The notes: a model not told the origin generated them from the letters alone. Shown: positions 6,836 to 28,359, counted from the stretch's first letter. The stretch: 64,000 bases of DNA from Vicinamibacterales bacterium (GCA_965262505.1 CBDHFM010000030.1:779244-843243); one strand, 5' to 3'. Numbers and translations are program-made.

Positions 6836-6993
6836 CGTATGCAAGACATAGAATCCGACATGGGATACGACACACGCTGGCGCTCGTCTGACGGCGTCCT
6901 TGCCCTTCTGTCGCAAACGGCCGTTTACGACACATGCGGATCGGCTACGCCCGCGTCTCAAAGGCGGACGGCTCCCAGTCGCTGGATCTGCAG
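6836..6993 (+). repeat. res site + truncated TniR-like resolvase start, copy 1
   Basis: Palindrome TGTCGCAAACGGCCGTTTACGACA at 6909-6932, then ATG at 6934: MRIGYARVSKADGSQSLDLQ, then unrelated sequence. Confidence 0.85.
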
Positions 6994-7119
6994 AGGTGCG
7001 CCATGCGTTCGCGGAGTGTCCCGACCTCGCCGCGCAGCGGTCAAGCCCACTCGGCTTACACTTCCCTCGCCACAACAAACTCGGGCTGGTCCGACGTCAG
7101 GGAAAAGGAATAAACCGCC

Positions 7120-7431
7120 GTGCTGAATGAAATAGTGTTACTGAAAGATCTTACCGACACAGAACGCATGATGTTCCAGTCGGAGCTTGCTGGAAGACGA
7201 AAGGACCCGACCACTGGCGTCCTGCTGTCCTTGTTCTTGGGCGGCTTCGGCGCTCACCGCTTCTACCTGAGCCAGACAGGGATCGGCGTCCTGTACCTCT
7301 GCTTCTGCTGGACGTTCATTCCGGCGATCGCGGCATTGATTGAGTGCTTCCTGATGTCCGGGCGCGTTCGAAAACACAACGCGGCCATTGCTGAAGAGAT
7401 CGTCACGAAACTCAAGGCGCTCAGAGGGTGA
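7120..7431 (+). CDS. TM2-domain (NINE) membrane protein
   Basis: KDPTTGVLLSLFLGGFGAHRFYL...GVLYLCFCWTFIP is the TM2 signature. Confidence 0.85.
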   Translation: MLNEIVLLKDLTDTERMMFQSELAGRRKDPTTGVLLSLFLGGFGAHRFYLSQTGIGVLYLCFCWTFIPAIAALIECFLMSGRVRKHNAAIAEEIVTKLKALRG

Positions 7432-7618
7432 TCACAACGAGTTCCACCACGCGGCCAACGTTGCCCATCCGCTGCGGCGACAAGCACACCAGACTTCGGA
7501 ATCAGATGCGGCGTCTGTTTGGGTGCACGGTCACAGGTGCGCTCGTGCTCTCGCCGTCGCCGCCGGTAATCGCGCCGTCGCAACTCCGCCTCGTGGAACA
7601 CCTCTAGCGCTGGTAACG

Positions 7619-8779
7619 ATGGCAGCACCCACCAGACCGCCTTGTGTCATGGTCAGCTCGACCTTCTACGATCTTCGTCAGATTCGCGACGATCTTCGCC
7701 AGTTCATCGAAGGCTTGGGCTATCGGCCGCTGCTCTCTGAGCATCCTTCGTTTCCCATCGATCCTGACGCGACCACAATCGAGAACTGTCGCCGCCGAGT
7801 CGAGCAGGACGCTGATGTCCTTGTGCTTGTGATTGGTGGGCGCTACGGCAGCATCGACGCCACGCCGAACAAGTCCGTCACGAACTTAGAGTACACGTCC
7901 GCGCGCCACAAACGCATACCTATCTACGTGTTTATCGACCCGCAAGTGCTCGCGTTGTTGCCTCTATGGAAGCGGAACCAGGCTGCCGATTTCTCCGAGC
8001 AGGTGGACTCGCCACGGTTGTTCGAGTTCATCGAACACGTGCGCACGATTGACGCCGTGTGGATGAATGAGTTCAGGATCGCGTGTGACATTACCGATGC
8101 CCTGCGCACCCAGTTCGCCTACCAGCAGCAGGCCGGACTGCGACTCCAGCGGCAGGCGGTTGGTCTGGCTGATCAGGACTGGTTGGACACGCTGCACGGT
8201 GAGGCTCTGCGCGTTGCGCTCGACCGACCACCACATTGGGAATATCTTCTATTTGCTACCTCGCTGAGGGACGGTGTGGCGCGCCACCGTCGCCTTGCTC
8301 GTACTCACGCGCTGAAGATACCAATCGGTTTTGGTGAGGACGTACAAGACCCACTGGCGTGGATCAACGCCAGATTCAACGACGCGCAGCGTCTGGTAAG
8401 TACGCTGAACGACTTGATGGGTGCCATTCAAGAAGCGTTCGGACCTGTAGGTGTGTCCGGTGACACCGGCTCCATCATCTTCGTGACGGACACGATGGCC
8501 GACCTATATCGGGATGCCATCTTATGGGGGCTCCGGGTGCGGACCGCGAACGTCGATGGGCAGTTTCAGCGACTCGTGACTGCGGTCGGCGACATGATGG
8601 ATGATGTCGTACAGCAGCTCGCCCAGTTTGGACCGCACGTGAAGGCACAGCTCGAGGCGGCGATCGCCGCACCGAAGACCGGAGTGCCGGTCGAAATCAC
8701 GCTCACAATCTCATTACCAGAATCAGCAATGCGATCGTTCAACGACGAACTGGCGCGGCTCACAAGCGGGGCACAATGA
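7619..8779 (+). CDS. DUF4062-domain protein
   Basis: VMVSSTFYDLRQIR...CRRRVEQDADVLVLVIGGRYGS...SVTNLEY...IPIYVF; start taken at ATG 7619. Confidence 0.8.
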   Translation: MAAPTRPPCVMVSSTFYDLRQIRDDLRQFIEGLGYRPLLSEHPSFPIDPDATTIENCRRRVEQDADVLVLVIGGRYGSIDATPNKSVTNLEYTSARHKRIPIYVFIDPQVLALLPLWKRNQAADFSEQVDSPRLFEFIEHVRTIDAVWMNEFRIACDITDALRTQFAYQQQAGLRLQRQAVGLADQDWLDTLHGEALRVALDRPPHWEYLLFATSLRDGVARHRRLARTHALKIPIGFGEDVQDPLAWINARFNDAQRLVSTLNDLMGAIQEAFGPVGVSGDTGSIIFVTDTMADLYRDAILWGLRVRTANVDGQFQRLVTAVGDMMDDVVQQLAQFGPHVKAQLEAAIAAPKTGVPVEITLTISLPESAMRSFNDELARLTSGAQ

Positions 8780-8850
8780 GGCCCAAAGAAGGCTCGGTAG
8801 CGCGTTGTCCGGGGCGTGACACGGGGGCTGCGCGACGGTCCGTGTACGAG

Positions 8851-8999
8851 GCGCGGTCTCGCGCGCGGGTACGGCGGCGCTGGCCGGACGGCGTCCTCGT
8901 CAGTGTGTCGCAAACGACCGTTTACGACACATGCTGATCAGCTACGCCCGCGTCTCGAAGGCGGACGGCTCCCAGTCGCTGGACCTGCAGCGCGACGCG
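8851..8999 (+). repeat. res site + truncated TniR-like start, copy 2
   Basis: Palindrome at 8906-8929; ATG 8931 MLISYARVSKADGSQSLDLQRDA. Confidence 0.85.
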
Positions 9000-9042
9000 C
9001 ACGCTCCAGAGGCCGGCGCCGCCGTGGACACGCCCGGGCCCT

Positions 9043-10209
9043 CTATGTGAGCGCCTGCTCGAGATCGGCGACGAGATCGTCGGCGCCCTCGAGCCCGACC
9101 GACAGGCGCAGCATCCCGCGGGTCACACCCGCCTCGGCCAGGCGTTCATCGCTGAGGCCGTAGTGCGACGTGAGGACCGGCAGGCTGCAGAGGCTCTCGG
9201 TGCCGCCGAGGCTCGTGGCGCGCTGGAACACCTGCAGGCGGTCGAACGCGCGGCAGGCGGCCTCGTAGCCGCCCGTCAGGTCGACGCAGATCATCCCGCC
9301 GAATCCGCTCATTTGGCCCCGCGCGATCTCGTGGTCGGGGTGCGACGGCAGCCCCGGGTAGGAGACCGCGGTGACGCCATCGCGACCGGCCAGCCACTCG
9401 GCGAGGCGCATCGCGTTGGCATTGTGCCGCTCGATGCGCACCGCTAGCGTCTTCAGCCCGCGGGCGAGCGCGGACGCGGGCCTCGGGTCGAGGATGCCGC
9501 CGAAGACCCTCCGCGTGCCCTCCAGCGGGCCGATGAGCGCGCGCGGGCCGAGGAGGGCGCCGGCGACGACGTCGTGGTGCCCGTTGAGGAACTTCGTGGC
9601 CGAGTGCATGACGAGGTCCACGCCCAGCGCGAGGGGCTGCTGGTTGAGGGGCGTCGCAAACGTGTTGTCGATGACCGACAGGACGCCGCGTGCGCGGCAG
9701 GCGTCTGCGACCTGGCGGATGTCCACGCAGCGGAGCGTCGGGTTCGCCGGCGACTCGAACCACACGAGTTTCGTGGCGGGGCCGATCGCCCGGCTGACGT
9801 CGGCCAGCTCGTCACGTGAGAGGACGCGGGCGGTGATACCGAACCGGCGGAGTTCGCCCGTGATCAAGTGCAGCGTGCCGCCGTAGAGCGCGGCGCCGCA
9901 GAGGACTTCGTCGCCCGGGGAGAGCAGGCCGAACAGGGCCGTCGTTGCCGCAGCCATGCCCGACGACGTGACGAGCCCGGCCTCGGCGCCTTCAAGCGCC
10001 GCCAGTTTCTCTTCGACGGCTTCCACGGACGGGTTGCCCCAGCGTGCATACAGATAGTGTCGGGTCTCCCCACGCTGATAGGCTTCGACCGCGGCCGCGT
10101 TCGTGAACACGAATGTGCTCGACGTGTAGATGGGCCGGCCGAGCGGCGTCGCGCCGTCGGGCACGCCCTCACCCAGGTGCAGCACGTCGGTGTCTCGCGA
10201 TCGCGCCAT
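9043..10209 (-). CDS. PLP-dependent Cys/Met metabolism enzyme (cystathionine gamma-synthase/lyase family), copy 1
   Basis: YARWGNPS, ESPANP, DNTFATP, HSATKFLNGH (PLP lysine), SLGGTESL, LRLSVGLE; start at ATG 10209. Confidence 0.92.
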   Translation of the reverse strand: MARSRDTDVLHLGEGVPDGATPLGRPIYTSSTFVFTNAAAVEAYQRGETRHYLYARWGNPSVEAVEEKLAALEGAEAGLVTSSGMAAATTALFGLLSPGDEVLCGAALYGGTLHLITGELRRFGITARVLSRDELADVSRAIGPATKLVWFESPANPTLRCVDIRQVADACRARGVLSVIDNTFATPLNQQPLALGVDLVMHSATKFLNGHHDVVAGALLGPRALIGPLEGTRRVFGGILDPRPASALARGLKTLAVRIERHNANAMRLAEWLAGRDGVTAVSYPGLPSHPDHEIARGQMSGFGGMICVDLTGGYEAACRAFDRLQVFQRATSLGGTESLCSLPVLTSHYGLSDERLAEAGVTRGMLRLSVGLEGADDLVADLEQALT

Positions 10210-10291
10210 GTCAGGCTCCTCCTCGCTGGACTGACACGCCCACAGGCGTGCCGCTTCTTTCACGGCGTGGCCGTCTCATCCCGGATCGCGG

Positions 10292-11221
10292 CTACGCCTC
10301 GTCGGGCCGGGCCATGCGGTAGCCGACCCCGCGCTCGTTGACGATCCAGGTCGGTCGGTCGGCGTCGTCGCCGAGCCGGTGGCGCAGCCGCTTGACGTAA
10401 GCGCGCACGATTTTGGGGGTGGCTTTGCTGCGTCCGCGTCCGGCCCAGACCTGGCGCAGCAAGACCTCGTGGGTCAGGACCCGGCCGGCGCCCTGCGCGA
10501 GCACGCGCAGCAGCTCGTACTCGGTCGCCGTCAGCGTCACCGGGCGCCCGGCCACGCTGACCCGCCGCCGGTCGTAGTCGATGGCGAGGTCGCCGAGGAC
10601 GAAGGGGACGGGGTTCGCCCGCCGGCGCAGGGCCGCCCGGATGCGCGCCGTGAGTTCGGTCGGCGAGAACGGCTTGACTACATAGTCCTCGGCGCCGGCC
10701 TCCAGTGCCCGCGCGATGGTCTCGTCGCGCCCGTAGCCCGAGATGAAGATGACCGGCAGGTCGGCGAGTTCCGGCACGGTCTGCATCAGCTCGACGCCGT
10801 CGGTCCCGGGCAGCATCAGGTCGAGCAGGACCAGGTGGGGCTTTTCGGCCCGGATGAGGCGCGGCAGATCCCCGGGGTCGCCGGTGACCAGCGGGGCGTA
10901 GCCCGCCTCCGCCAGCGTGTCGCGGAGATGGCGCAGCGTCTCCGGGTCGTCGTCGACCACGAGGATGGGCACCGCGTCCGGGGCGTGGCCCGGCGGTCCG
11001 GGGCGGGCCGGGGCGGGACGGTCGCTGGCCGCCTCGGCCACCGGGATCGTGAAGGTGAAGCGCGCGCCGAAGCCGACGCCGCCGCTCTCGGCCCGGATGC
11101 GCCCACCCTGGGCCTCGACCAGGCCCTTGCAGATGGCGAGGCCCAGCCCGCTGCCGAGGCCGCCCTTCCGGTCCCCGGCGGTGGTGTATTTACGGAACAG
11201 CTGGCCGAGCTGGTCCGGCGC
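10292..11221 (-). pseudogene. 3' part of the hybrid kinase/response regulator, truncated by an IS903-like element
   Basis: Near-identical to 29609-30538; homology stops exactly at the IS end at 11222. Confidence 0.9.
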
Positions 11222-11669
11222 GGCGTTGTTGCACGAATCCTCACTGGCCCGCACGATGCCAACCGACAGGATTCTCACCTGCCGATGCGATACGACACTG
11301 GTCGGCCGAGGGCGGTCATCCGATTGAGGATCTCACAGCCGAGGACGGCCTCACTCCCCTGCCCAGCTGGACTCCGGGCACGAAGGGGCATTGTCAAGTT
11401 GAGGCTGGCGACCGCTTTTGATGCCCATCATGGCGGGTTCGCGACGGGCTGTAGCCCAGTATCTTGGGGGTCAATCGACGAGCCTTTCGTCAACTTGACA
11501 ATGCCCGAGCGCGCCAAGCCGCAGACTTGGCGGCCTGAACGACCGTCTTGACATATAGGGGCGTCAGTGCCCCTTCGACTGCATCCCCGTAGTGTGGCGC
11601 CTGCGGAGGGTCCCGAGAAGTGCGGGCCACGCCGCCACGCCCGTAGAGGGTCTTCATGCAACAACGCCG
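11222..11669 (-). mobile_element. Internally deleted IS903-like element retaining both ends
   Basis: IRs ggcgttgttgcacgaa (11222) and ttcatgcaacaacgcc (11654-11669); only the extreme 3' and 5' parts of the transposase remain. Confidence 0.85.
11386..11506. mobile_element. 121-bp MITE-like element with 17-bp perfect terminal IRs (IS6-like ends)
   Basis: gggcattgtcaagttga (11386-11402) and tcaacttgacaatgccc (11490-11506); no ORF; family assignment is from IR resemblance only. Confidence 0.55.
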
Positions 11670-12626
11670 CGATGCGCGGCGACGATGGCGAGATCACGAG
11701 CCCGCCTGTGACCGTCCCATAGTTCAGGTCCGGCCACGCGCGGTTAATTTTTTTCAGCTCGCGCAGACATTCAGAGCGGAAGCGGTTGACCGAGCTGTGT
11801 TTGTCGACCTTCGCCGGGTCCGCGCCGAACTGTTTGAAGAGCTGGCGCCAGGAGAGGCACAACGGCGTCTTGAGCGCGAACGTGCGATACGTGAGCCACA
11901 AATACAGGTCGAGGCCGAGGGGCGACCGCTTCACCGCCTTGAGGATGTGCAGGTCGATTGGCACCGGGTGCGCGATGATCTCGTTGAAGAATTCTTCCCC
12001 GAGCCGGATCGTGCTGTCCCACAGGACCGGCACATCGGGTCGTTTCATATCCCACCAGAACTCTGTTCGATCAGCCACGTATGAGCTTACGCTCGCGTTC
12101 CGCGCGCCGTCCGTATAGACCAGCGAGATCCCGCATCGAAAGAGCCGGCGCATTTGATTCTTGAGCCGCGTCCGCTCGCCGTGTGCGCCGCCGCTGCGAT
12201 CCTCCATGCCGAGCTTTCGCATGAACTCATACAACGACCGGCCGAGGACCAGCTCGCGGCGCTGCGTCCGCACCGCTTCGGTGCAGACCCATGCCAGCAG
12301 CAGACGTGGAATGTTGCCGTAGGGCAACTTCTCGTCACCACCGGCACTCATGATCAGCTTGTACGGGCCGTTGACGCGCTTGAATTGCAGGCGGTCGCCG
12401 GGGTTCGTACGCGGCAGGCTGCACAGCGCGAGCAGCCGCGCCATGAACCCAAGTCGGGCTCCGCTTCGCTGGCCTCGACGAGCTGATTGACCTGCTGCAG
12501 TGTCGTGAAGTGGTGCCGCGCCTGGGGCGCGGCGGGCGTCAGGGCTCGACCGCCGGGCAGTTCGACCGCCCCGGCCACGTCGCTGAGGGGCACGAACCCG
12601 CTGACTGGTCGAGAAGGGATGCTCAT
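11670..12626 (-). pseudogene. repA: Plasmid replication initiator RepA (RepA_C-like), frameshifted near 12448 and cut at the 3' end by IS
   Basis: One frame gives HHFTTLQQVNQLVEASEAEPDLG, the next FMARLLALCSLPRTNPG...KLPYGNIPRLLLAWVCTEAVRT...LDLYLWLTYR. Confidence 0.8.
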
Positions 12627-12754
12627 CGTTCAAAAACTACGATAAAACTTCCCGATCCACAGCACCGAGGCCTTTCCAGCATCTTTGGGGACGCTGGCCG
12701 CAGAGCGTGACGAGCCAGGAATAGATGCGCCTAACATATACATACTTGGCGTCG

Positions 12755-13072
12755 CTACCCGGCCCTGCGCAACGCGGCCGCCGTCTGCCAAAGATCCCAG
12801 TCGGCCTGGAGGCTCATCCAGAACTCCGGAGACATCTTGAACAACCGTGCGAGCCGGAGTGCGGTATCCGCTGTGATCCCACGCCGCCCGCGGACGATTT
12901 CATTCAAGCGGTTCAGCGGGATCTGCATGCGCCGGGCTGCCTCGACTTGCGTGAGGTTCGCCGGCCGGAGAAACTCCTCGCGCAGCATCTCCCCGGGCGA
13001 CGTCGGCGGGCGCTTCAGATCCAGCACAGACCGCGGCCCCTTAGTGGTAGTCCTCGCATGTGACCGCATCAA
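12755..13072 (-). CDS. higA: HigA-family antitoxin (HTH)
   Basis: PTSPGEMLREEFL...EIVRGRRGITADTALRLARLFKMSPEFWMSLQ; the true start may be downstream of 13072. Confidence 0.9.
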   Translation of the reverse strand: MMRSHARTTTKGPRSVLDLKRPPTSPGEMLREEFLRPANLTQVEAARRMQIPLNRLNEIVRGRRGITADTALRLARLFKMSPEFWMSLQADWDLWQTAAALRRAG

Positions 13073-13331
13073 CAGAGCCTCCCTCGAATTGAAACGTGAT
13101 CCGATACTGCTCGTTCACCCTCACGCTATAGCACCCGCTCCGATCGCCCTTCAACGCCTCTAAACGATTGCCCGCGGGGAGCCGCAGATCCTGGATCGCC
13201 CGTGCGCGGTGCAGCGCGTCCAGTTTTCGCCGGATCACAGGCCACAACGGCTTCGGCAACCGGCGGACGCTTTTCGTATCGCGGCCATAGTAGACATCGG
13301 CCGTCCCCGCGTCGGCGAACGACCGGATCAC
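13041..13331 (-). CDS. higB: HigB (RelE-superfamily) toxin
   Basis: MIRSF...RRKLDALH...PAGNRLEALKGDRSGCYSVRVNEQYRITFQF; toxin-first order with higA. Confidence 0.9.
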   Translation of the reverse strand: MIRSFADAGTADVYYGRDTKSVRRLPKPLWPVIRRKLDALHRARAIQDLRLPAGNRLEALKGDRSGCYSVRVNEQYRITFQFEGGSVDAVTCEDYH

Positions 13332-13344
13332 GACACTACATTAC

Positions 13345-13363
13345 ATGATTAACGGTTAATCAT
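13345..13363. promoter_or_regulatory. Probable HigA operator
   Basis: Perfect 9-bp inverted repeat ATGATTAAC-G-GTTAATCAT 14 bp upstream of the higB GTG. Confidence 0.7.
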
Positions 13364-13700
13364 CAATTCTGATGGTGTCGGGTAGGATGACGCGCGCACG
13401 ATCGCCAAACGCCTTTCGACCGCCCCGGCCCACGTCAACGACCGACGAGTACGGCGTTCAGCGGAGCCGTTAGGCGCCTCCATCAGCGTTGCTCGCCCCG
13501 CGTGCCGGCGACGACGGCGCCCGTGCCACGTAGGGAAACCACCTGCTCGATTTCGGCGATCACCGCGTCGTTTTGCCTCCCCTCCTCATCCACCGGAATT
13601 GGCTGTTTCGCACAAGAAATTATTTACATAATTTCACACTTACGAAAATGTAGAATTACTCAATTGTGTAATCCTGAAATTCTGCTATCCTCTGAGCCAC

Positions 13701-13955
13701 GTGATTATCACCGTCGCCAGCTTTAAGGGCGGGGTTGCCAAGACGACAACCGCCGTTCACCTCGCCGCCTACCTTCAACGGCTTGCACCAACGCTGTTAC
13801 TCGACGGCGACCCGAACCGTCAGGCCCTTGTCTGGAACACCGCAGGACGGATGCCCTTCAAGGTGGCCGACATCCTCCAAAGCGCGAAACACGCCGCCGA
13901 CTATGGCGTGGGGCGCGGCCACATCGTCATAGACACCGAAGCCCGCCCCGGCCCA
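13701..13955 (+). pseudogene. Truncated parA copy created by the duplication
   Basis: Same N-terminus as 14225-14830 up to EARPGP, then reads into duplicated upstream DNA. Confidence 0.9.
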
Positions 13956-14139
13956 CGTCAACGACCGACGAGTACGGCGTTCAGCGGAGCCGTTAGGCGC
14001 CTCCATCAGCATTGCTCGCCCCGCGTGCCGGCGACGACGGCGCCCGTGCCACGTAGGGAAACCACCTGCTCGATTTCGGCGATCACCGCGTCGTTTTGCC
14101 TCCCCTCTTCATCCACCGGAATTGGCTGTTTCGCACAAT

Positions 14140-14205
14140 GGAATTATTTACATAATTTCACACTTACGAAAATGTAGAATTACTCAATTGTGTAATCCTG
14201 AAATT
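14140..14205. promoter_or_regulatory. AT-rich parA promoter/centromere-like tract
   Basis: Short TTAC/GTAAT/AATT repeats including aattgtgtaat, which recurs after the operon. Confidence 0.5.
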
Positions 14206-14224
14206 CTGCTATCCTCTGAGCCAC

Positions 14225-14830
14225 GTGATTATCACCGTCGCCAGCTTTAAGGGCGGGGTTGCCAAGACGACAACCGCCGTTCACCTCGCCGCCTACCTTC
14301 AACGGCTTGCACCAACGCTGTTACTCGACGGCGACCCGAACCGTCAGGCCCTTGTCTGGAACACCGCAGGACGGATGCCCTTCAAGGTGGCCGACATCCT
14401 CCAAAGCGCGAAACACGCCGCCGACTATGGCGTGGGGCGCGGCCACATCGTCATAGACACCGAAGCCCGCCCCGGCCCAGACGACTTCAAGGCCCTGGCC
14501 GAGGGCTGCGATCTGCTGGTGATTCCAGCGGTCCCCGATCCGCTCGATACCTACGCGCTCATGCTCACCCTCAAGGAACTGCGGAAGGTGGGCGCGGTCA
14601 ATTTAAGGGTCTTGGTCGTGAAGGTTCCCACCGGCGAGAAGGAAGCCGAAGAACTCCGAGCGCAGCTCATCTCCGCCGCCGTGCCCGTGTTCACTGCTGA
14701 AATCCCGATTCTCAAGGCGTTCAAGCGGGCCGTGGCGCAGGGCGTCCCCGTCTATGCCGTGAAGGGCGATCCCTACGCAGAGCGGGCATGGGAAGCGTAT
14801 GAGGCCGCAGGCCGGGAGATTGTCCAGTGA
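14225..14830 (+). CDS. parA: Short type Ib ParA ATPase
   Basis: KGGVAKTT deviant Walker A, LLDGDPN, IVIDT; 201 aa with no N-terminal HTH. Confidence 0.9.
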   Translation: MIITVASFKGGVAKTTTAVHLAAYLQRLAPTLLLDGDPNRQALVWNTAGRMPFKVADILQSAKHAADYGVGRGHIVIDTEARPGPDDFKALAEGCDLLVIPAVPDPLDTYALMLTLKELRKVGAVNLRVLVVKVPTGEKEAEELRAQLISAAVPVFTAEIPILKAFKRAVAQGVPVYAVKGDPYAERAWEAYEAAGREIVQ

Positions 14831-15153
14831 GTACGTTTCGCCGTAGCACAGGCATTGCCGACGCCCTCAAGGGCCTACGTGACCCTGAGCCGCCGCCCGC
14901 CGTGGAAGAGCAGGGCAGCGAAGAATCGCCGCCGAAGCCAGCGCCGCGCTTGGTCTCCCAACCGGGTGAAAAACGCGGCCCCGGACGACCGATCGGGAAG
15001 CGAGGAAACCCAGACTACAAGCAATACACCGTCTTGCTGAAAGCCGTCACGCACCGTAAAGCCCTCGATCATTTACGCCTGAAAAGCGACCGGCCTGATT
15101 TTTCCGATTTGCTCGAAACGCTGCTCGCCGCATGGAACCGCAAGCAAAAGTGA
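14827..15153 (+). CDS. Small ParA partner (ParG/ParB-like, probable ribbon-helix-helix)
   Basis: Overlaps the parA stop (GTGA); disordered N-terminus, then GRPIGKRGNPDYKQYTVLL...DFSDLLETLLAAW. Confidence 0.7.
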   Translation: MSTFRRSTGIADALKGLRDPEPPPAVEEQGSEESPPKPAPRLVSQPGEKRGPGRPIGKRGNPDYKQYTVLLKAVTHRKALDHLRLKSDRPDFSDLLETLLAAWNRKQK

Positions 15154-15200
15154 AGTTTTAAAATTATGAAATGTTATAATTGTGTAATTTTACAATTAGT
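15152..15200. promoter_or_regulatory. AT-rich centromere-like tract downstream of the par operon
   Basis: aagttttaaaattatgaaatgttataattgtgtaattttacaatta in a very GC-rich context. Confidence 0.5.
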
Positions 15201-15224
15201 ATCTTACAGAGTGGCGCCGCGTTT

Positions 15225-15327
15225 CCCGGCCCGCGCCCTGCGCGAGCACGCGCAGCAGCTCGTACTCGGTCGCCGTCAGCGTCACCGGGCGCCCGGCCAC
15301 GCTGACCCGCCGCCGGTCGTAGTCGAT
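15225..15327 (-). pseudogene. About 100-bp fragment of the regulator wHTH domain
   Basis: IDYDRRRVSVAGRPVTLTATEYELLRVLAQGAGR, identical in translation to copy 1. Confidence 0.9.
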
Positions 15328-15502
15328 CTTCGTTGAGCGGTCATCCATAGCCCTCTGCCCTCCGTCGTCCCACGAGTGTAGCCGGGGTTGACGCTCCGGC
15401 CTTCGTTGAGCGCACCTGATCACGATCACCAAAGAATCACGAGACGACGTGTCTTCGGCCCCCGCTGGTGTCTGGCGCCGCGGCACTGGCACACGCGCTC
15501 GA

Positions 15503-15613
15503 CGTATGCAAGACATAGAATCAGACACGGGATACGACACACGGCGGCGCGCGCCGGAAGGCGTCCTTGTCCGTGTGTCGCAAACGGCCGTTTACGACAC
15601 ATGCTGATCGGCT
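15503..15613 (+). repeat. res site + truncated TniR-like start, copy 3
   Basis: Shares the upstream cgtatgcaagacatagaatc...gggatacgacacacg tract with copy 1; palindrome at 15576-15599; ATGCTGATCGGCT then breaks. Confidence 0.85.
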
Positions 15614-15710: not shown

Positions 15711-15722
15711 CATAATGGATGG

Positions 15723-19612: not shown

Positions 19613-19693
19613 GCGTCGTCGTCGTCGAGCCGGTTGCGCAGCCGCTTGACGTAGGCGCGCACGATCTTGTGGGTTGCCGTGGACGCGTCCTGC
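19613..19693 (-). pseudogene. Diverged fragment of the regulator wHTH 3' end
   Basis: ATHKIVRAYVKRLRNRLDDDDA versus ATPKIVRAYVKRLRHRLGDDA in the intact gene. Confidence 0.8.
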
Positions 19694-19853: not shown

Positions 19854-21937
19854 ATGCAGTTCTGCGTTCGTTTCGTTCGCCTTCGTCTGTTCGTCGTGCC
19901 CGTTCTTCTAGCGGCTCTCGCGCCGGCGTTGCCGGCGGTCGCCCAGGATGTTCCGGGAGATTTCGGGATGTTCCTGCCGGTGGATGCGGCCGGGTCGGAA
20001 TTCGTAGGTCTGGCGGCCCGGTCGCTGACCGGGGATCCGCTCGTTGTTCGGGCACGGCGCGTCGGCATTGATTTCGAGGCGTTTGCGCCGCTCACCGACG
20101 TCCTCGAACGCGGTGCGGCACTTCCGGTTTTGCGGTTGAATCTCTTCGAGAACGTCGTAGTCGAGTCGCTGGTCGAGTCGGTGGACCTCACGGCGTCGGG
20201 GTACTCGTGGTCGGGCGGCGTTACCGGCGACCCGATGGGGTCGGTGGCGATGGCGGTGAACGGTGACGTGGTGAGCGGGGTCGTGCGGACTCGGGGGCGG
20301 GTATACATGATCCGGAGCGAAGGCTCAGGGCAGTACTCCATCCGCGAGGTCGACCGGTCCGGGTTGCCGGAGGGTGCTCAGCCGCTCGTTCCACGCTCGT
20401 TGGTGGAGTTGGATCCGGCGCCAGCGGCGTTCGTCGACGATCCGGGCCGTGTTGACATCGCGGTCTTTTACACGCCGGCCGCGCAGCGGGACGCGGGCGG
20501 AACGGACGAGATCAACGCCTTAATCGACGCGTGGATTGCGGACACCAACGGGGCGTACTTGCGGAGCGACATTCAGCACCGGCTGAACCTGGTGCTGCGG
20601 GAGCAGGTTTCCTACACCGAGGGCGAGGACAGCGAGGACAACTCCGTCATCAAGCAGGCGCTCGACTGTCTCATCGAGGAAGACGACGATTGCCTCGACG
20701 CGGTGCATGCTCGCCGCGAGAAGTATTCGTCGGATCTGGTTCACTTGATCGTGGGCGGGCCCTCCTCCGAGTACGCCTGCGGTAAAGCTGGTCTGACTGG
20801 CGACTTCGGGGTGTCCCATCTCGTCTGCGGCTCCGACACCTTCGCGCACGAGGTCGGGCACAACAGCGGCGCCAAGCACGATCGCTACGTGGAGTACGAC
20901 GAGGAATGCGACACGGACCCGGAGACACCATGCTTCACCGACTTTCCGTCGGCGTACGCCTACGGCTACGTCAACCAGATCGGCTTGCACGCGAGCGCCG
21001 CCCTAGAGGACCGCTGGAGAACGGTGATGGCGTACTATGATCAATGCTCCGAGGCGGAGGTGTTCTGCGCTCAATTGATGCGATTCTCCAACCCGGACCA
21101 GTCCTGGTACGGCGATCGGCTGGGCGTGTATGGAACGCACGAGCGGTCCTATAGCGATGCCGCAGAAGCGGCGAGGATAGGTCCGGCGGACACGGCCCGA
21201 ACGCATCGCGAGTTCGCCCACGATCTGGCCAACCGGATGGTCCGTGAGGCTCCGGATCTGGTCGTGAAGGGACTCCAGTCGAGCCGGCTCCAGGCGGTGC
21301 CGGGGGCGTTGGTGCGCCTGAGCGCCGTCGTCGAGAACCTGGGAATTTCGACGGGCTACGCGCCGGAGACCGCGGTGACGTGGTGCCGGGCGTCGCTGAG
21401 CGGCTGCTCGTCGTCGGTCGGGGTGCCGGCGGCGGTGCCGTACCTCGAATCGAACGGGCGGGCTCCGGTGTCGACCTCGTTCACGCTCCCCTCGTCGCGG
21501 GGATCGTACTCCTACCGGGCGTGTGTTTTGTTCACGCCGGGCGAGACGTTGACAGAGAACAACTGCTCAGAGACGGTGACGGTCGAAGTCGGCGTTGTCG
21601 ATCTGCAGTTCTCAATGTCGCTCTCGACATACTCGGCGCTGGCGGGTGCGGAGGTCACGATCGAGGGGGTCGTGCGTAACCGCGGGACGATTGGCTCGAG
21701 TGCTGGCCGACTGCGCTTCGTGACCCGCGATTCGGCGGGCGAGTTGGACTGGTTCGGTTCGCACTTCTTCCAGACGCTCGCGGCGGGCTCGTCGGCGACG
21801 TTCAAGACGACGTTCGAGGCTCCTGATGTTACTGCGACCATCAGTACTGGGCGTGCCTCTCGTCGTCGCACGTGGTGTTCCGTTGTGTTCAGGAGAACCT
21901 GAGTGTCGTTTCGTCTTCGGCCCTAGCGCCAAGATGA
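19854..21937 (+). CDS. Secreted reprolysin/M12B-like zinc metallopeptidase with CARDB-like domains; probable frameshift near 21840
   Basis: Signal peptide, pro-region, VDIAVFYTPAA, HEVGHNSGAKH (HExxHxxGxxH), two APDL-type Ig repeats. The shifted frame gives QYWACL...* at 21937. Confidence 0.82.
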
Positions 21938-22262: not shown

Positions 22263-22522
22263 GCGCGGTCTCGCGCGCGGGTACTGCGGCGCTCGCCGGA
22301 CGGCGTCCTTGCCTGCCTGTCGTAAACGACCGTTTACGACACACGCTGATCGGCTCCGGGCTCGAGAGGAATGCGTGCAACGGTGGAAGATCATTCACGC
22401 CGCGCGAACAATACCACGTGCGACTCGCATATTTGCGACATGCGGACGAGGGACGAGGACTATTCGTAGCACGCCTCCCCCAACGGCCAGCCGCAATATT
22501 CCCAGTCGCTGGACCTGCAGCG
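22263..22522 (+). repeat. res site + split TniR-like start, copy 5
   Basis: Perfect 10-bp arms TGTCGTAAAC/GTTTACGACA at 22318-22341; start mutated to ACG; the resolvase sequence resumes at 22501 (cccagtcgctggacctgcagcg). Upstream flank is shared with copy 2. Confidence 0.8.
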
Positions 22523-22836
22523 CCACAGCCCCGGCCAAGCCCACCAACGCCGCCCCCGCGAGTCAACAAGCACTCGCGCGGCGTGAGCAGGGCATCCGGA
22601 GCGGCGACCGGCAGATTTGGCTTGAGGCGGGGGCGTTGACCGTCTCTTGTCTCTTCGAGACCTACACGCCTGTCTTCCCAATGCCGACGATACGAAATGT
22701 TATCGTGCGTCACACTGCGCGGGGCGTGCGGGAAGGGCGACTGGCGAGGCCACCAGCGAGCTTCGCCTCGGCGTGGAAGCGCTGGAACGGATGCTTGAGG
22801 AGAGGTCCATCCCGAAAAATATTTAAAGGCTTTCCA

Positions 22837-25800
22837 ATGCCAGATGAACCACGAACCGCTTGCCTCGCTCGCGCTGCGGCGGTACTGCTGCTGACGCTCG
22901 CGGCACTCGCCGCAAGCGTTCCTGATGCACACGCGCAAACAAACACCGAAACACGGTACGAGGTGGGTGACGTGATCACCACCATGCCAACTGGAATCTG
23001 GTCTCCTGACCGGCTCAGCGGCGGCGTCGCGTTCAGGTTCGTCGACGGCAAGGCGGACATCCGCTTCGGCAACGGCGGGCTTATCGAAGAGAATGGCTAC
23101 AGATACACGTGTGAGAGTGCCGGAGGTTGCCACGTCAATGACCGGGAGGTAGACGCCGGGACGATTGTGGAAATCTTTAGCGGTGACCAGCCGGACCCAG
23201 ACCCGGATCCAGACCCGGACCCTGGAGTGGGCGGCGTCTGCAGCCGCACCCGGCAGGTGCGTGATGCGATCGTGGCGGCGTCACCCGTGACAACTTGCAG
23301 CGCCGTGACGGACGCGCACTTGGCGGCGATTCCGGAGCTGAATCTCCCCTCGGCCGCCATTACCTCCCTACAGGCTGAGGATTTTGCCGGGCTGTCGGCG
23401 CTGGAATATCTCATTCTGTACGACAACCAACTGAGCAGCCTGCCGGCGGGTGTGTTTGCCGGGCTGTCGGCGCTGAGGTGGCTCCAGCTGGACAGCAACC
23501 AACTAAGCAGCCTGCCGGCTGGCGTGTTTGCCGGGCTGTCGACGCTGGAAGTGCTCTATCTGTACAGCAACCAACTGAGCAGCTTGCCGGCGGGTGTGTT
23601 TGCCGGGCTGTCGGCGCTGGAAGTGCTCCAGTTGTTTGACAACCAACTGAGCAGCCTGCCGGAAGGCGTGTTTGCCGGGCTGTCGGCGCTGATGGGGCTC
23701 GATCTGGATGACAACCCTGTCGATCCACTGCCGGTCACGGTTTCCCTGGTCTCGGCCGGGACTGGTGCATTCAAGGCCACCGTCCACACGGGCGCGCCGT
23801 TCAATATGGTGGTGCCGGTCAGCGTCACGAACGGCGTGATCGACGGCGGGGCAACCACCGTCACGATTCCCACCGGCAGCGTGGAGATCGGCCCGCTCGC
23901 GGTGACCCGCACGCCCGGCGCCACGGGGGCAGTGACCGCAGACATCGGAACGCTTCCGGGGTTACCCACTAATGTGGATCCCGGGGGCCCACTTCGTCAT
24001 CGGGGCTATGCGCTTGTCAAATCCGCCGACTTACCGCTGGAGGTCATTGCGACCATCGTGCCGGGTCCACCGAAGGCGCTAACGGCGACTGCCGGGGACA
24101 CCCAGGTGACGCTGGAGTGGAGTATCCCGACGAATAACGGCGACAGCGCGATCATCCGCTACGAGTACATGCATGAAAACAAAGCATGGACATCCACGGG
24201 GGGGACCGGGACCAGCTACACCGTCACCGACCTGACCAACGGCCAGAGCTATACCTTCGAGGTGCGGGCGGTGAACACGCAGGGGGCGGGTCCCGCCGCG
24301 CGCGTGACGGCCACGCCGGCCGCCCCTGGAGCCGGATTGGCGCCGGCGGATCAGGCGGCGTTCGACAGTCTGGCTGTCGGGAAGCAGATAGTGAACCCTG
24401 TTTCGGACGGTAGGCTGGTCTTTCTTTCTCCCGGCCGCATCCGGGAGTTTGACCAAGGCGAGTCCTACGACGGCGACTATCAGTATGTAAATACCGGTGA
24501 AAATACGGGGACCCTCACGTACACCTATGACGTGACAGGCAACACCCCCGACGTCGAAAAGTCGGTGATCGAGTTTACGTTCACGTCAATGACCGCGGGC
24601 ACGGCCGTCTATACCTATACCGAGCGCGGGTCACCGCCTGAAACGGTCAGACTGAGTTTCGAGTTTATTAACGCACCAGCGGAACCGGTGGTTGAGGGCG
24701 ACCGTGCGGTGCTCGAGGAGTTCTACGACGCGACGAACGGGGCGAACTGGTCCAGCAGCACGAACTGGAAGACGGAGGCGCTGCTGGGTGACTGGGTCGG
24801 GGTGAAGACGGACGCGAGCGGCCGGGTTGCAGAGCTGCATCTCAGGGAAAACCAGTTGAGCGGGTCGATCCCGAGCAGCCTGGGGAACCTATCCAACCTC
24901 GAATATCTGGATCTCTGGGAAAACCAGTTAAGCGGGTCGATCCCGAGCAGCCTGGGGACCCTGTCCAACCTCCAAGCGCTGGATCTTTCGTTCAACCAGT
25001 TGAGCGGGTCGATCCCGATCAGTCTGGGGACCCTGTCCAACCTCCAAGTGCTGTCTCTGTCGGCCGGCAACGACGAACTGTGCGCGCCGAATGACGAAGC
25101 GTTTCAGGCGTGGTTGAAGAGCATAGGAGATCTGCGTTGGACTGGCCCGACATGCACGGCGGACGTGGTGCAGCCGAAGCCTGAGGATGAGGTGCAGGCG
25201 ACTGTCGAGGCGGCGGTGGCGGCCGGCGGGGGGTTGCGGGCCGGTGGTCCCCCCGTGACGATCGACATGAGCACCCTGTTCTCGTTCGGCGCGGGAGGCA
25301 ACGCGGATACCGACTACGCTGCGCAGTCATCCGACCCGGCGTTGGTCTTGGCGGAGGTGACGGACGAGCGCCTGGTACTCACCCCTGGCAACGCGCTGCC
25401 TGCCGGGGCGTCCTCGAGTCTGGCGGTGGGCGCGACGGAGACGTTGGATGGCGACCCGGCGCGGGCCACGATCACGGTGACCGCGGTGCGGGCGGGTGAG
25501 ATGGCCGAAGTCGAGTTCACGGTCGAGGTCGAGGCGGCGCCGGCGGACGAGCCCACGCCGACCATGTTGACCCTGAGCGCGGCCCCGGCTCCGGCCGAAG
25601 GCGGGAACCCAGTGACGGTGACCGCGACGCTCGACAACCCGGCCACGGCGAACGGCCTGACGGTGACGCTGACGACGAGCGGCACGGCGACGCTCGACAC
25701 CGACTACACGCTGTCCTCGACCACGATCACCCTCGCCGCGGGCGAGACGGTGGGCACGGTGACGATCACGATCACCGACGACGCCGAGGACGACGACGGC

Positions 25801-26001
25801 GAAACCATCGTCATTGACGCCGAGAGCACGAGCCCGGCGCTGACCGCCGAGCCACTCACCCTCACCATCGAGGACAACGACGTGACGCCGGTGCCGGCGC
25901 TCCCGCTCGGCGGCGCGATGTTGCTCGGACTGCTGCTCACGTTGCTCGGAGCCGTGCGGATGCGCATGCGGGATCGCACAGACATTGCGCAGAGCTACTG
26001 A
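22837..26001 (+). CDS. Secreted multidomain LRR/FN3 surface protein with Calx-beta-like domain and IPTL-CTERM-like anchor
   Basis: Signal peptide ending AHA-Q, DP repeat, NQLSSLPAGVFAGLSAL LRRs, FN3 (YTFEVRAVN), NQLSGSIPSSLGNLSNL LRRs, C-terminal VPALP + TM helix + basic tail. Confidence 0.88.
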   Translation: MPDEPRTACLARAAAVLLLTLAALAASVPDAHAQTNTETRYEVGDVITTMPTGIWSPDRLSGGVAFRFVDGKADIRFGNGGLIEENGYRYTCESAGGCHVNDREVDAGTIVEIFSGDQPDPDPDPDPDPGVGGVCSRTRQVRDAIVAASPVTTCSAVTDAHLAAIPELNLPSAAITSLQAEDFAGLSALEYLILYDNQLSSLPAGVFAGLSALRWLQLDSNQLSSLPAGVFAGLSTLEVLYLYSNQLSSLPAGVFAGLSALEVLQLFDNQLSSLPEGVFAGLSALMGLDLDDNPVDPLPVTVSLVSAGTGAFKATVHTGAPFNMVVPVSVTNGVIDGGATTVTIPTGSVEIGPLAVTRTPGATGAVTADIGTLPGLPTNVDPGGPLRHRGYALVKSADLPLEVIATIVPGPPKALTATAGDTQVTLEWSIPTNNGDSAIIRYEYMHENKAWTSTGGTGTSYTVTDLTNGQSYTFEVRAVNTQGAGPAARVTATPAAPGAGLAPADQAAFDSLAVGKQIVNPVSDGRLVFLSPGRIREFDQGESYDGDYQYVNTGENTGTLTYTYDVTGNTPDVEKSVIEFTFTSMTAGTAVYTYTERGSPPETVRLSFEFINAPAEPVVEGDRAVLEEFYDATNGANWSSSTNWKTEALLGDWVGVKTDASGRVAELHLRENQLSGSIPSSLGNLSNLEYLDLWENQLSGSIPSSLGTLSNLQALDLSFNQLSGSIPISLGTLSNLQVLSLSAGNDELCAPNDEAFQAWLKSIGDLRWTGPTCTADVVQPKPEDEVQATVEAAVAAGGGLRAGGPPVTIDMSTLFSFGAGGNADTDYAAQSSDPALVLAEVTDERLVLTPGNALPAGASSSLAVGATETLDGDPARATITVTAVRAGEMAEVEFTVEVEAAPADEPTPTMLTLSAAPAPAEGGNPVTVTATLDNPATANGLTVTLTTSGTATLDTDYTLSSTTITLAAGETVGTVTITITDDAEDDDGETIVIDAESTSPALTAEPLTLTIEDNDVTPVPALPLGGAMLLGLLLTLLGAVRMRMRDRTDIAQSY

Positions 26002-26297
26002 GTGGAACCCTCGAACACATCCTGGCGCTGGGCAAGCGCCTCAACGTAGGCGGTGGCTCGACTCGGGAACGGCGGCGGGGATGTAGGCAACGGCACGCGA
26101 TGCCGGGCTGCCTGACCGACGCATTACGCAGCTCGAGGAGAGGGTCGCCAAGCAGACCGAGGTGGAAGGGTTGCGGGATCGCACGAACATTGCGCGTGGC
26201 CGTGTGTCGCAAACGACCGTTTACGACACATGCTGGTCGGCTACGCCCGCGTCTCGAAGGCGGACGGCTCCCAGTCGCTGGACCTGCAGCGCGACGC
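25557..26297 (+). repeat. About 740-bp direct repeat (anchor module + spacer + res), copy A
   Basis: Aligns with 27575-28315 at an offset of 2018 bp. Confidence 0.9.
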
Positions 26298-26484
26298 GTT
26301 GCAGGCCGCGGGCGTCGACGCCGTCCACGTCTACCACGACTTCGCGTCCGGCGTCCGCGACGACCGCCCGGGATTCGACAGCTGCGTGCGCGCGCTCCGA
26401 ACGGGCGACGTGCGCGTCGTCTGGAAGCTCGACCGCCTCGGCCGCCCCCTCGCCTTCCGACAGCGACTTATGATTGTCGCATGA
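26205..26484 (+). pseudogene. res palindrome + longest TniR-like serine resolvase remnant, copy 6
   Basis: MLVGYARVSKADGSQSLDLQRDALQAAGVD...ASGVRDDRPG...VVWKLDRLGR; the catalytic N-terminal part ends at about residue 75. Confidence 0.9.
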
Positions 26485-28019
26485 GAGACGTAGCGATTCT
26501 GGCCGTCCTCCTCGCCACTGTCGCGACGGCGAGCGCCGCCGATACCGATAAGCTCTCGCCCCGCGAGGCCGGCCGATTCGTGCGCGTGCTCTACCTCGCG
26601 CCGGCCGACCGGGACTTCCGAGCCGACTTCGAGAGCTCGATCGCCACGGCAGTCGCCAGCGTTCACCGGTGGTATCGCGAACAGCTCGACGGCAGCACCT
26701 TCGCGGTTTACAGGCCGATGGCCGAACGGTGCCGGCTACCCGAAGATTCCGACTACTACAGCCACGGCAACGTCTGGGAAAAGGTCTTGAGAGCTGTGCA
26801 GTCCTGCGCGCCGGTGCGCGATATCGGCGCCAGTGGCGGCGACATCAATGCGGCACAGGTCGTGTGGGCGCTATACGTCGATGCCACGGAGAGGCTGAAC
26901 TGCGACGAGCCGCAGGAACTCGGGCGGGGGGGGCTCGGCCTCACCATGCTGCCGCGCGAGGACCTCGAACTCATGGTACAGCCGGGGACGCTGGAATACT
27001 GCGACGGGACCTTCTACCGGAGCGTGCAGAGCGTCTACGGGGGACTGGCGCACGAACTCGGCCACGCCTTCGGACTGCCGCACCCGCCCGGTTGCGACGA
27101 AGGGTCGCCATCCTGCGACACTCAGGCGCTCATGTGGGACGGCTACGGTAGCTACCCGAACACCTATCTGCGCGACGACGAAAAGGCCGTGCTCCTCGAG
27201 TTGCCGTTCATCGGCCCCGACGGTATGGCGGTCGCGCCCACGCCGACCATGCTGACGCTGAGCGCGGCCTCGGCCCCGGCCGAAGGCGGGAACCCGGTGA
27301 CGGTGACCGCGACGCTCGACACCCCGGCCCCAGCGAACGGCCTGACGATGACGCTGACGACGAGCGGCACGGCGACGCTCGACACCGACTACACGCTGTC
27401 CTCGACCACGATCACCCTCGCCGCGGGCGAGACGGCGGGCACGGTGACGATCACGGTCACCGACGACGCCGAGGACGACGACGGCGAAACCATCGTCATT
27501 GACGCCGAGAGCACGAGCCCCGCGCTGGCCGCCGAGCCATTCACCCTCACCATCGAGGACAACGACGGTCCTGCGCCGACCATGCTGACGCTGAGCGCGG
27601 CCTCGGCCCCGGCCGAAGGCGGGAACCCGGTGACGGTGACCGCGACGCTCGACAACCCGGCCCCAGCGAACGGCCTGACGGTGACGCTGACGACGAGCGG
27701 CACGGCGACGCTCGACACCGACTACATGCTGTCATCGACCACGATCACCCTCGCCGAGGGCGAGACGGCGGGCACGGTGACGATTACGGTCACCGACGAC
27801 GCGGAGGACGACGCCGGCGAGACCATCGTCATTGACGCCGAGAGCACGAACCCGGCGCTGACCGCCGAGCAACTCACCCTCACCATCGAGGACAACGACG
27901 TGACGCCGGTGCCGGCGCTCCCGCTCGGCGGCGCGATGTTGCTCGGCCTGCTGCTCACGTTGCTCGGAGCCGTGCGGGTGCGCATGCGGGATCGCACAGA
28001 CATTGCGCAGAGCTATTGA
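26481..28019 (+). CDS. Secreted metzincin-type metallopeptidase with two Calx-beta-like domains and IPTL-CTERM-like anchor
   Basis: Signal peptide, HELGHAFGLPH plus Met-turn ALMW, two about 110-aa repeats, VPALP-TM tail; the start overlaps the resolvase remnant stop. Confidence 0.85.
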   Translation: MRDVAILAVLLATVATASAADTDKLSPREAGRFVRVLYLAPADRDFRADFESSIATAVASVHRWYREQLDGSTFAVYRPMAERCRLPEDSDYYSHGNVWEKVLRAVQSCAPVRDIGASGGDINAAQVVWALYVDATERLNCDEPQELGRGGLGLTMLPREDLELMVQPGTLEYCDGTFYRSVQSVYGGLAHELGHAFGLPHPPGCDEGSPSCDTQALMWDGYGSYPNTYLRDDEKAVLLELPFIGPDGMAVAPTPTMLTLSAASAPAEGGNPVTVTATLDTPAPANGLTMTLTTSGTATLDTDYTLSSTTITLAAGETAGTVTITVTDDAEDDDGETIVIDAESTSPALAAEPFTLTIEDNDGPAPTMLTLSAASAPAEGGNPVTVTATLDNPAPANGLTVTLTTSGTATLDTDYMLSSTTITLAEGETAGTVTITVTDDAEDDAGETIVIDAESTNPALTAEQLTLTIEDNDVTPVPALPLGGAMLLGLLLTLLGAVRVRMRDRTDIAQSY

Positions 28020-28315
28020 GTGGAACCCTCGAACACATCCTGGCGCTGGGCAAGCGCCTCAACGTAGGCTGTGGCTCGACTCGGGAACGGCGGCGGGGAT
28101 GTAGGCAGCGGCACGCGATGCCGCGCTGCCTGACCGACGAATTACGCAACTCGAGGAGAGGGTCGCCAAGCAGACCGAGGTGGAAGGGTTGCGGGATCGC
28201 ACGGATATTGCGCGTGGCCGTCTGTCGCAAACGACCGTTTACGACACATGCTGATCAGCTACGCCCGCGTCTCGAAGGCGGACGGCTCCCAGTCGCTGGA
28301 CCTGCAGCGCGACGC
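27575..28315 (+). repeat. About 740-bp direct repeat, copy B, containing res/TniR copy 7
   Basis: Palindrome at 28223-28246; ATG 28248 MLISYARVSKADGSQSLDLQRDA. Confidence 0.9.
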
Positions 28316-28359
28316 GCACGCTCCAGAGGACGGCGCCGCCGTGGACACGCCCGGGCCCT

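Follow-up and report, generated by a model that had tools for sequence, protein, structure and literature searches.

In Tn3-family transposons such as Tn5501/TnTsp1 and Tn4662a, halves of different elements have been joined at the serine resolvase site res, with homology ending at the crossover site (Lima-Mendez et al. 2020, PMC7157771). The resolvase gene of Tn3, gamma-delta and SGI1 has accessory site III next to it, and the crossover site lies at the far end of res (PMC12217951, PMC7157771). Sin/beta-type res sites (Rowland et al.; Mouw et al. 2008, PMC2428073) are laid out differently, with one dyad crossover site and two head-to-tail accessory repeats about 60 bp away within about 90 bp. 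Characterised resolvases need accessory sites (PMC12217951, PMC2428073). Here, a 64-kb stretch of DNA from a Vicinamibacterales bacterium (64,000 nucleotides, GCA_965262505.1 CBDHFM010000030.1:779244-843243; the window) was analyzed, in which seven co-oriented copies of a 24-bp palindrome, P, each followed by the truncated start of a serine resolvase gene, divide 21 kb of this soil acidobacterial chromosome into cargo modules. Comparison with related loci supports well that strands were repeatedly exchanged at the centre of P.

Palindrome P and its point of exchange

The palindrome TGTCGYAAACGRCCGTTTACGACA occurs in seven exact copies in the window (pattern TGTCG(C/T)AAACG(A/G)CCGTTTACGACA; starts in Table 1). 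Its asymmetric positions place all copies on the plus strand, and no chance match was obtained in 100 shuffles. Each copy is followed by a C and the resolvase start codon (ATG, or ACG in copy 5), and the reading frame behind it opens with MLIGYARVSKADGSQSLDLQRDA. An earlier interpretation made from the sequence alone (the sequence-only reading) had placed seven co-oriented palindromes 1 nt before resolvase starts; all positions and the strand were confirmed. The remnants translate as MLIGYARVSKADGSQ. PF00239, the N-terminal catalytic domain that holds the nucleophilic serine, is present in the 84-aa copy-6 product and in every relative of it. Homology to the intact resolvase gene tnpR stops after about 61, 71, 14, 14-16, 14, 224 and 71 nt in copies 1 to 7, and copy 5 has an extra 27-nt resolvase fragment about 160 nt downstream (22500-22526). 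With a full-length relative as tblastn query, no other resolvase piece, 3' remnant or intact gene was found in the 64 kb. Thus, as had been claimed, every copy is truncated (stumps of 14-224 nt), and none encodes a complete resolvase of about 185-210 aa with a C-terminal DNA-binding domain. Inspection by eye revealed no sequence common to the truncation junctions, and a scan for sigma-70 promoters and terminators around res copy 3 gave nothing.

The shared upstream flank types predicted earlier were also recovered. Copies 1 and 3 have 81 nt of left flank in common, copies 2 and 5 have 67 nt, and copies 6 and 7 have 659 nt, which are the C-terminus of paralogous Calx-beta proteins; on the right, copies 2 and 7 have 2.3 kb in common (97%). 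Within the window, the pairwise difference per site was 0.032 for P, 0.109 for the next 14 nt and 0.36-0.46 for the 24 nt upstream; the sequence immediately beside P thus differs about 3 to 14 times as much as P itself.

The full res comprises about 95 bp, with three direct 12-bp repeats, a GC-rich spacer and P abutting the start codon. The accessory repeats AGACAtagaatcAGACAcgggatacGACA (AGACA / AGACA / CGACA) lie at -65 to -37 and are 90-99% conserved in 32 canonical copies, more strongly than the spacer. In the window, a dyad crossover site with complete accessory sites upstream of the gene is present only in copies 1 and 3, and the other five consist of P alone or P plus part of the spacer. 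Homology between res copy 1 and the other res copies begins abruptly at 6836.

A scan of one genome per species yielded 74 P copies in 55 loci, and further copies were found on circular RepA_C plasmids. Compared loci are named L with a number, and window copies W with the start of P. When all pairs of the 74 copies were compared, with sharing scored beyond -125 on the left and beyond the resolvase remnant on the right, the left flank was common in 12 pairs, the right flank in 25 and both in 0. In right-sharing pairs, near-identity extends leftward only as far as P position 13; position 12 and the res before it are different. Mismatches left and right of the centre were 11/82 vs. 1/112 in L014/L034, 17/82 vs. 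5/112 in L023/L041 and 15/82 vs. 1/72 in L054:374/W6909; for these pairs and L010/L055, p ranged from 1e-3 to 1e-11. In L010/L055, L009/L037 and W8906/W28223, the left arms are unrelated right up to P. Left-sharing pairs are identical through P to at least position 18, with the first difference at P position 19 in L036/L047 and 5 nt past P in L054:2931/W8906. The switch from identity to divergence is thereby bracketed to P positions 12-19, a bracket pieced together from different pairs rather than one event. Which base occupies position 12 of P, G or A, is associated with the canonical upstream type (p=2.5e-7), and no polymorphism downstream shows such a link. The plasmid contigs L074, L075 and L076 carry P, tnpR and a TonB receptor gene with 0-5 mismatches in about 3 kb (99.8-100%), and 17-22 of 84 positions are mismatched in the accessory part of their res.

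Since the right-sharing, left-sharing, position-12 and L074-L076 comparisons agree, it is well supported, as far as sequence comparison reaches, that strands were exchanged repeatedly at the centre of P and that P behaves as a serine-recombinase crossover site. The sequence-only reading had expected an alignment of the copies to locate flank-swap points, and the switches lie at the centre of P. Any left arm has in this way been joined to any right arm, among plasmids, among chromosomes and across the two.

This exchange maps to the gene-proximal palindrome, and thus not to the place expected from the Tn3/gamma-delta layout. The Tn3 three-subsite model (site I distal, near -75) was dropped as the main exchange point because right-sharing pairs diverge across -84 to -1 and are identical only from P onward. 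No evident dyad was seen on inspection of the distal res region (-88 to -61). In its layout, the res resembles the Sin type more than the Tn3 type. The resolvase is 70% identical to Tn5053 TniR, and its earlier labelling as a Tn5053/Tn402 TniR describes no more than this likeness; the lack of tniABQ and of Tn402 inverted repeats (IRs) speaks against the label, as does the Tn3-type tnpA in the ancestral flank. One left flank that recurs among canonical res copies ('type B'; L003, L013, L025, L027, L033, L045, L053) consists of the initial 25-36 codons of a Tn3-family tnpA that is transcribed away from res. Stubs of tnpA, 23-36 codons long, lie beside res in relatives (also L009, L017, L064-L068), and in L078 (8996-9818) a 236-aa internally deleted tnpA adjoins Bil (ubiquitin-like) defence genes. 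No intact tnpA was found in any locus, and no DDE TnpA of about 1000 aa in the window. Since the type B flank is the start of a divergent tnpA, the ancestral setting was a Tn3-like unit with tnpA and tnpR diverging from one res.

Recurring modules and plasmid-borne arrays

Almost all of the 55 loci lie on chromosomes of Vicinamibacterales (Acidobacteriota); a minority belongs to Latescibacterota, Chloroflexota, Longimicrobiales, Bryobacterales and Thermoanaerobaculia. In OZ250139.1, a chromosome of 4.65 Mb, P occurs 17 times. Adjacent copies are co-oriented in 21 of 22 pairs, and a complete resolvase gene is present in only about 5-6 of the 74 copies. The remnants are skewed toward P (median length about 65 of 613 nt), and truncation points pile up beside it. 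The loci were found via intact P, and secondary copies in them carry 1-3 mismatches; therefore, the conservation of P across the family and the 5' bias of the remnants are partly an ascertainment effect. Family-wide conservation was rejected as proof of selection, and only the comparison within the window is unbiased in this respect.

Whole P-to-P modules recur in different arrays. The segment 6994-8905 with P2 is 97.5-99% identical to L054 998-3049, where it also lies between two P sites. From P1 to P2 the window corresponds to L054 374-2931; the outer flanks differ, and the left switch falls at position 12/13 of P1. Since the L054 resolvase gene ahead of this module is nearly full length, the 20-codon stump of copy 1 results from a later internal deletion of about 540 nt. 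Likewise, L007 7993-6858 matches L032 4928-6079 on the same chromosome, from the right arm of the first P to the left arm of the second (units of 1135 and 1151 nt), and the right neighbours differ. Left arms without accessory repeats (the types of window copy 2, of L036/L047 and of L008/L009/L032/W19451) each occur with several right arms, switching at P, which suggests that bare sites were exchanged after losing their repeats. Reassortment of modules at P is thus well supported by these sequences. As a separate observation in another lineage, L061 and L062/L063 (99.7% identical) split at about 2470, 10 nt into an inverted resolvase fragment, with P lost; this indicates a recent rearrangement beside a site.

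A search of relatives for the palindrome and an intact tniR, which had been suggested as a check, led beyond the 74 copies to intact genes on circular plasmids. Intact resolvases are abundant in European Nucleotide Archive (ENA) assemblies (7020 proteins at E <= 1e-60), and the intact proteins of relatives have 203-204 aa. A 73-aa query returned only truncated proteins (<=128 aa) and a full-length query thousands of about 180-330 aa; as an effect of query length is suspected, the truncated fraction was not estimated from the 73-aa search. The contigs that carry intact genes are circular RepA_C/ParA plasmids of 19-36 kb as well as others measuring 48-80 kb. On the plasmids, a full res (G at position 12) is followed by intact tnpR, a 3' untranslated region of about 35 nt and a second P (A at position 12); behind this P come 12 nt from the start of tnpR, a gene for a TonB receptor and further P sites. 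Arrays headed in this way hold up to five co-oriented P sites (L074). In L074 (9976-10760), L071 (8761-9460), L007 and L032, the intact resolvase gene stands between two P sites and, since it is bracketed in this manner, looks like a module of the array itself.

The sample of a sister strain also contained a 65-kb circular plasmid; its res is canonical, its resolvase gene is cut by an insertion sequence (IS) of the IS1595 family, and its RepA is 60-64% identical to that of the window. Near-identity searches of the 22-kb array against PLSDB plasmids gave no match, and a distant search matched only resolvase genes (72-74% identity). Pattern scans for P in JGI metagenome contigs and IMG/VR gave nothing; further copies were drawn from ENA assemblies via protein look-ups. 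A search for small free circles of resolvase plus cargo returned only short linear contigs, one with a Tn3-type tnpA fragment; empty sites and minority junctions were likewise not encountered.

Explanations of the array

That the seven repeats are crossover sites of a small serine resolvase, and that the array was built by P x P recombination and has since been stabilised, is given slightly more credence than doubt. According to this explanation, res-tnpR units and cargo-carrying derivatives, mostly from RepA_C plasmids, would have been added side by side by P x P recombination. Either integration or a cointegrate followed by resolution would leave co-oriented P sites bounding modules. In most copies, deletions stopping at P would then have removed the accessory repeats together with the bulk of tnpR, and the removal of both efficient resolution and long homology would let the arrays persist. 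The array in the window would now be stabilised and largely inactive, with rare reshuffling only if a resolvase acted in trans. The cassette array described by the sequence-only reading thus survives in part: P is an exchange point, modules recur, arrays are co-oriented, and intact resolvases head the plasmid arrays. Its further elements, i.e., stacking by integration of circles, excision in trans and present-day mobility, are conjectural, and hybrid arms can also stem from cointegrates formed by any route and resolved at res, for which integration is not required.

Several points weigh against the explanation by P x P recombination. First, P is identified as a crossover site by sequence comparison, with a bracket of composite origin, and part of its family-wide conservation and of the 5' bias of the remnants reflects ascertainment. 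Second, its gene-proximal position breaks the rule known from Tn3, gamma-delta and SGI1, and five of the seven P sites in the window are bare, whereas characterised resolvases do not recombine such sites. Third, the G/A difference in the presumed 2-bp overlap should hamper recombination between site types. Fourth, in three strains with about 99.6% identity (L058, L059/L060), the order is unchanged from 5 kb to 34 kb, without P-to-P variation, and the only differences are IS insertions and the repeat number of a leucine-rich repeat (LRR) gene. An unchanged cargo order in relatives had been named as a finding that would speak against the cassette array; these strains show it over a very short divergence only, and modules are reassorted elsewhere.

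A more far-reaching version, less probable than not, is a cassette system driven by a serine resolvase, in which an autonomous P-resolvase-P unit would accompany non-autonomous cargo modules shuffled in trans between plasmids and chromosomes. Such modules would keep a reduced site (P, about 12-14 nt and a spacer-derived arm) and would move among soil Acidobacteriota and neighbouring phyla as a functional analogue of integrons and pdif modules. In such a system, the GC and AC central dinucleotides might represent two compatibility classes of site.

It is rather unlikely that independent plasmids or Tn3-like elements with res-tnpR merely piled up, that exchange took place only between complete res sites, in the course of normal cointegrate resolution, and that bare P copies are dead relics, inactive as module boundaries both now and earlier. 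Such a history would account for the missing intact resolvase in the window, the five sites without accessory repeats, the static near-identical strains and the simple later deletion in copy 1; the tnpA stubs show Tn3-like descent, and known resolvases require accessory sites (PMC12217951, PMC2428073). It leaves unexplained why repeat-less left arms occur on different right arms with the switch at P, why P is so much better conserved than its flanks in the window, and why bare co-oriented P sites lie directly behind an intact resolvase on plasmids.

Homologous recombination or gene conversion among dispersed res-tnpR repeats of 60-700 bp is an improbable source of the reassorted arms. The copies, with 60-700 bp at 85-95% identity, could support RecA-dependent exchange over time, and plain segmental duplication explains window copies 6 and 7. 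Even with homology on both sides, the switch remains at 12/13 (L014/L034, L023/L041, L054/W6909, L074-L076); many partners have only about 40-60 bp in common, and breakpoints are not scattered along tnpR.

Hallmarks of transposons and integrons were searched for as well. With R751/Tn402 proteins as tblastn queries, tniA, tniB and tniQ had no match in the window or in more than 70 loci, which confirms and extends the earlier statement that tniABQ are missing from the window. The Tn402 25-bp IR had no match in the window at up to 3 mismatches, and a generic inverted-repeat scan found none bracketing the modules, although no consensus search for the 38-40-bp IRs of the Tn3 family was made. Independent transposon insertions were rejected on these grounds and for want of a common junction sequence. 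Targeted transposition, in which res-hunting (Tn5053/Tn402-like) or other site-seeking transposons inserted cargo beside resolvase-bound res, is very improbable: breakpoints do cluster within about 100 bp on either side of P, res hunters do integrate at or close to res with a fixed orientation (PMC7765201, PMC12217951), and in L021 and L028 an IS ends 25-45 nt before P, but this mechanism lacks the transposition genes, the terminal and bracketing repeats and, as judged by eye, any common end sequence at the junctions, and it does not explain exchange at the centre of P. Neither an IntI integrase with attI nor a dedicated integron-like platform was found in the window; the only tyrosine recombinases are of the P4 type, at least about 19 kb from the array, and the module boundaries are near-identical 24-bp palindromes with resolvase stumps instead of attC sites, which in integrons mostly enclose single open reading frames without promoters.

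The island and its counterparts among known systems

The features of the array are listed in Table 1. The modules measure 2-6.7 kb and often hold several genes. The cargo assigned to the intervals by the sequence-only reading holds, with interval 2 being composite (duplicated PLP-dependent enzyme, kinase fragment, IS remnant and a RepA_C/HigBA/ParA backbone).

Table 1. Coordinates of P copies, resolvase remnants and cargo in the window
Feature	Position	Strand	Details
Full res copy 1	6836-6932	+	Repeats 6844-6872, spacer 6873-6908, P1 6909-6932 (G at position 12)
Resolvase 5' remnant 1	6934-6993	+	About 20 codons; internal deletion of about 540 nt vs. nearly full L054 gene
Module 1	6994-8905	+	TM2 7120-7431, DUF4062 7649-8779, 45-nt spacer-only left arm 8861-8905
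P2 and 71-nt resolvase remnant	8906-9000	+	P2 8906-8929, A at position 12; without accessory repeats
Module 2, composite	9001-15509		PLP enzyme 9043-10209 (-), response-regulator fragment 10292-11278 (-)
Module 2, backbone			RepA_C 11428-12633 (-), HigA/HigB 12755-13331 (-), ParA 14225-14830, orf108
Module 2, repeats and remnant			IS-end remnant 11219-11671; two 523-bp repeats 13420-14441
Full res copy 3	15510-15613	+	Repeats 15511-15539, spacer 15540-15575, P3 15576-15599 (G at position 12), 14 nt resolvase
Module 3	15614-19450		TonB-type outer-membrane receptor 15723-18164 (+), IS630-like element 18161-19190 (-); left arm of the type common to L008, L009, L032
P4 and about 16 nt resolvase	19451-19490	+	A at position 12; right arm also in L001 and plasmid contig L074
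Module 4 cargo	19854-21902	+	M12B (reprolysin-like) metallopeptidase with CARDB domain
Spacer-only left arm, P5 and about 14 nt resolvase	22273-22355	+	Left arm as in copy 2; P5 22318-22341, T at position 6, A at position 12
Module 5 cargo	22837-26001	+	LRR / fibronectin-III / Calx-beta surface protein; start approximate, mapped from strain L058 gene call; LRR repeat number varies by strain
P6 and longest resolvase remnant (224 nt)	26205-26452	+	A at position 12; 84-aa open reading frame
Module 6 cargo	26481-28019	+	Calx-beta / M12-like protein; C-terminus and the 659 nt behind it are duplicates of their module 5 counterparts
P7 and 71-nt resolvase remnant	28223-28317	+	A at position 12
Beyond P7			PLP enzyme 28360-29526 (-), GAF-PAS-kinase-regulator gene 29609-31966 (-)

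In five of the six modules, the cargo is co-directional with the resolvase stump. The 84-aa stump reading frame of copy 6 (26230-26484) overlaps the downstream Calx-beta/M12-like gene by 4 nt, and this overlap may couple the two translationally; the copy-6 product was placed on a 5.4-Mb contig. In the LRR gene, the number of 72-nt leucine-rich repeats varies (23367-25063 compared with L058 and L059; products of 1174 and 1054 aa). Since it differs between near-identical strains, the LRR surface protein varies faster than the P array.

Two direct copies of a 2.3-kb unit (8903-11222 and 28220-30540; 97-98% identical) comprise P, the 71-nt stump, the gene of a PLP-dependent Cys/Met-metabolism enzyme and the 3' part of the regulator gene; the first is interrupted by the IS-end remnant. 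More fragments of the same GAF-PAS-kinase-regulator gene lie at 15225-15327 and 19613-19677, the latter being its 3' end, behind the fourth P. The two tandem 523-bp units between higB and parA (about 99-100% identical) could be a partition/iteron region or a recent duplication.

The array lies in a mosaic island that holds numerous IS elements and, in inverted orientation, two tyrosine integrases of the P4 type (47206-48435, plus strand; 59515-60783, minus strand; Arm-DNA-bind_3, Phage_int_M, Phage_integrase). In L028 and L044, relatives of these integrases adjoin P sites, and the island may have been assembled from integrative elements. Copies or fragments of an IS5-family element (DDE_Tnp_1) lie at 34401-35500, 43764-44860, 46007-47060 and 56733-57250, and remnants of it at 11222-11680 and 60960-61030. 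At about 34404, an IS5-family copy splits the gene of a large cadherin/Big_9 adhesin; two strains about 99.6% identical have this gene intact (1616 aa). The IS630-like element (DDE_3 and HTH) of module 3 has an inverted second copy at 61058-62087, and both match L031 (83%). Immediately upstream of res copy 1, a fused AriA-AriB (PARIS-type) anti-phage gene was found at 5181-6593 on the plus strand (PADLOC E=1e-124; Pfam AAA_21 and DUF4435).

Acidobacteriota are among the most abundant soil bacteria, and their gene exchange is poorly known. If resolvase sites serve as portable module boundaries, they would represent a third modular route of gene exchange beside integrons and Xer/dif modules, here with secreted proteases, surface LRR proteins, TonB-type receptors, DUF4062/TM2 proteins and plasmid backbones as cargo. 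A small resolvase would then act beyond the strict res x res rule. The site layout, in which direct-repeat accessory sites accompany a crossover site that abuts the start codon, is relevant to recombinase mechanism and tool building. Even on a conservative view, dozens of resolvase stumps in these genomes would be accounted for, and P would be a simple marker of plasmid-derived islands. A literature search yielded no account of stacked modules bounded by resolvase sites, nor of the P family in Acidobacteriota.

Compared with module exchange at res in the Tn3 family, the joining of halves at a serine resolvase site, the break of homology at the crossover site and a divergent Tn3-type tnpA, here ancestral, are common ground. 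Unlike there, transposase and IRs are lacking, up to seven co-oriented sites are stacked, mostly bare and with gene stumps, and the gene-proximal palindrome takes the place of a distal site I. The likeness to Sin/beta-type res, in size, single dyad and distant head-to-tail repeats, is one of sequence layout only; three 12-bp repeats are found instead of two, and the resolvase belongs to a TniR-like clade. With Tn5053/Tn402 res-tniR, the locus has in common a resolvase of 70% identity with the same N-terminus and a dyad just upstream of the start codon; in pADP-1, a 28-bp palindrome lies 9 nt before the ATG of a Tn5053/Tn402-type tniR. It differs by the lack of tniA/tniB/tniQ, of 25-bp IRs and of mer or integron cargo.

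As in the pdif (XerC/XerD) modules of Acinetobacter plasmids (PMC9501444), multimer-resolution sites flank modules that recur across plasmids. There, a Xer tyrosine recombinase acts at alternating 28-bp sites, whereas a serine resolvase and direct repeats are found here, on chromosomes too. As in integrons and in attC clusters without an integrase, co-oriented sites bound accessory modules with mostly co-directional cargo, and arrays occur both with the recombinase gene (plasmids) and without it (window). In contrast to integrons, the recombinase is a serine resolvase rather than a tyrosine recombinase, the sites are near-identical double-strand palindromes rather than folded attC, the modules of 2-7 kb are often multigene with their own recombinase stump, and the recombinase gene is itself the first module.

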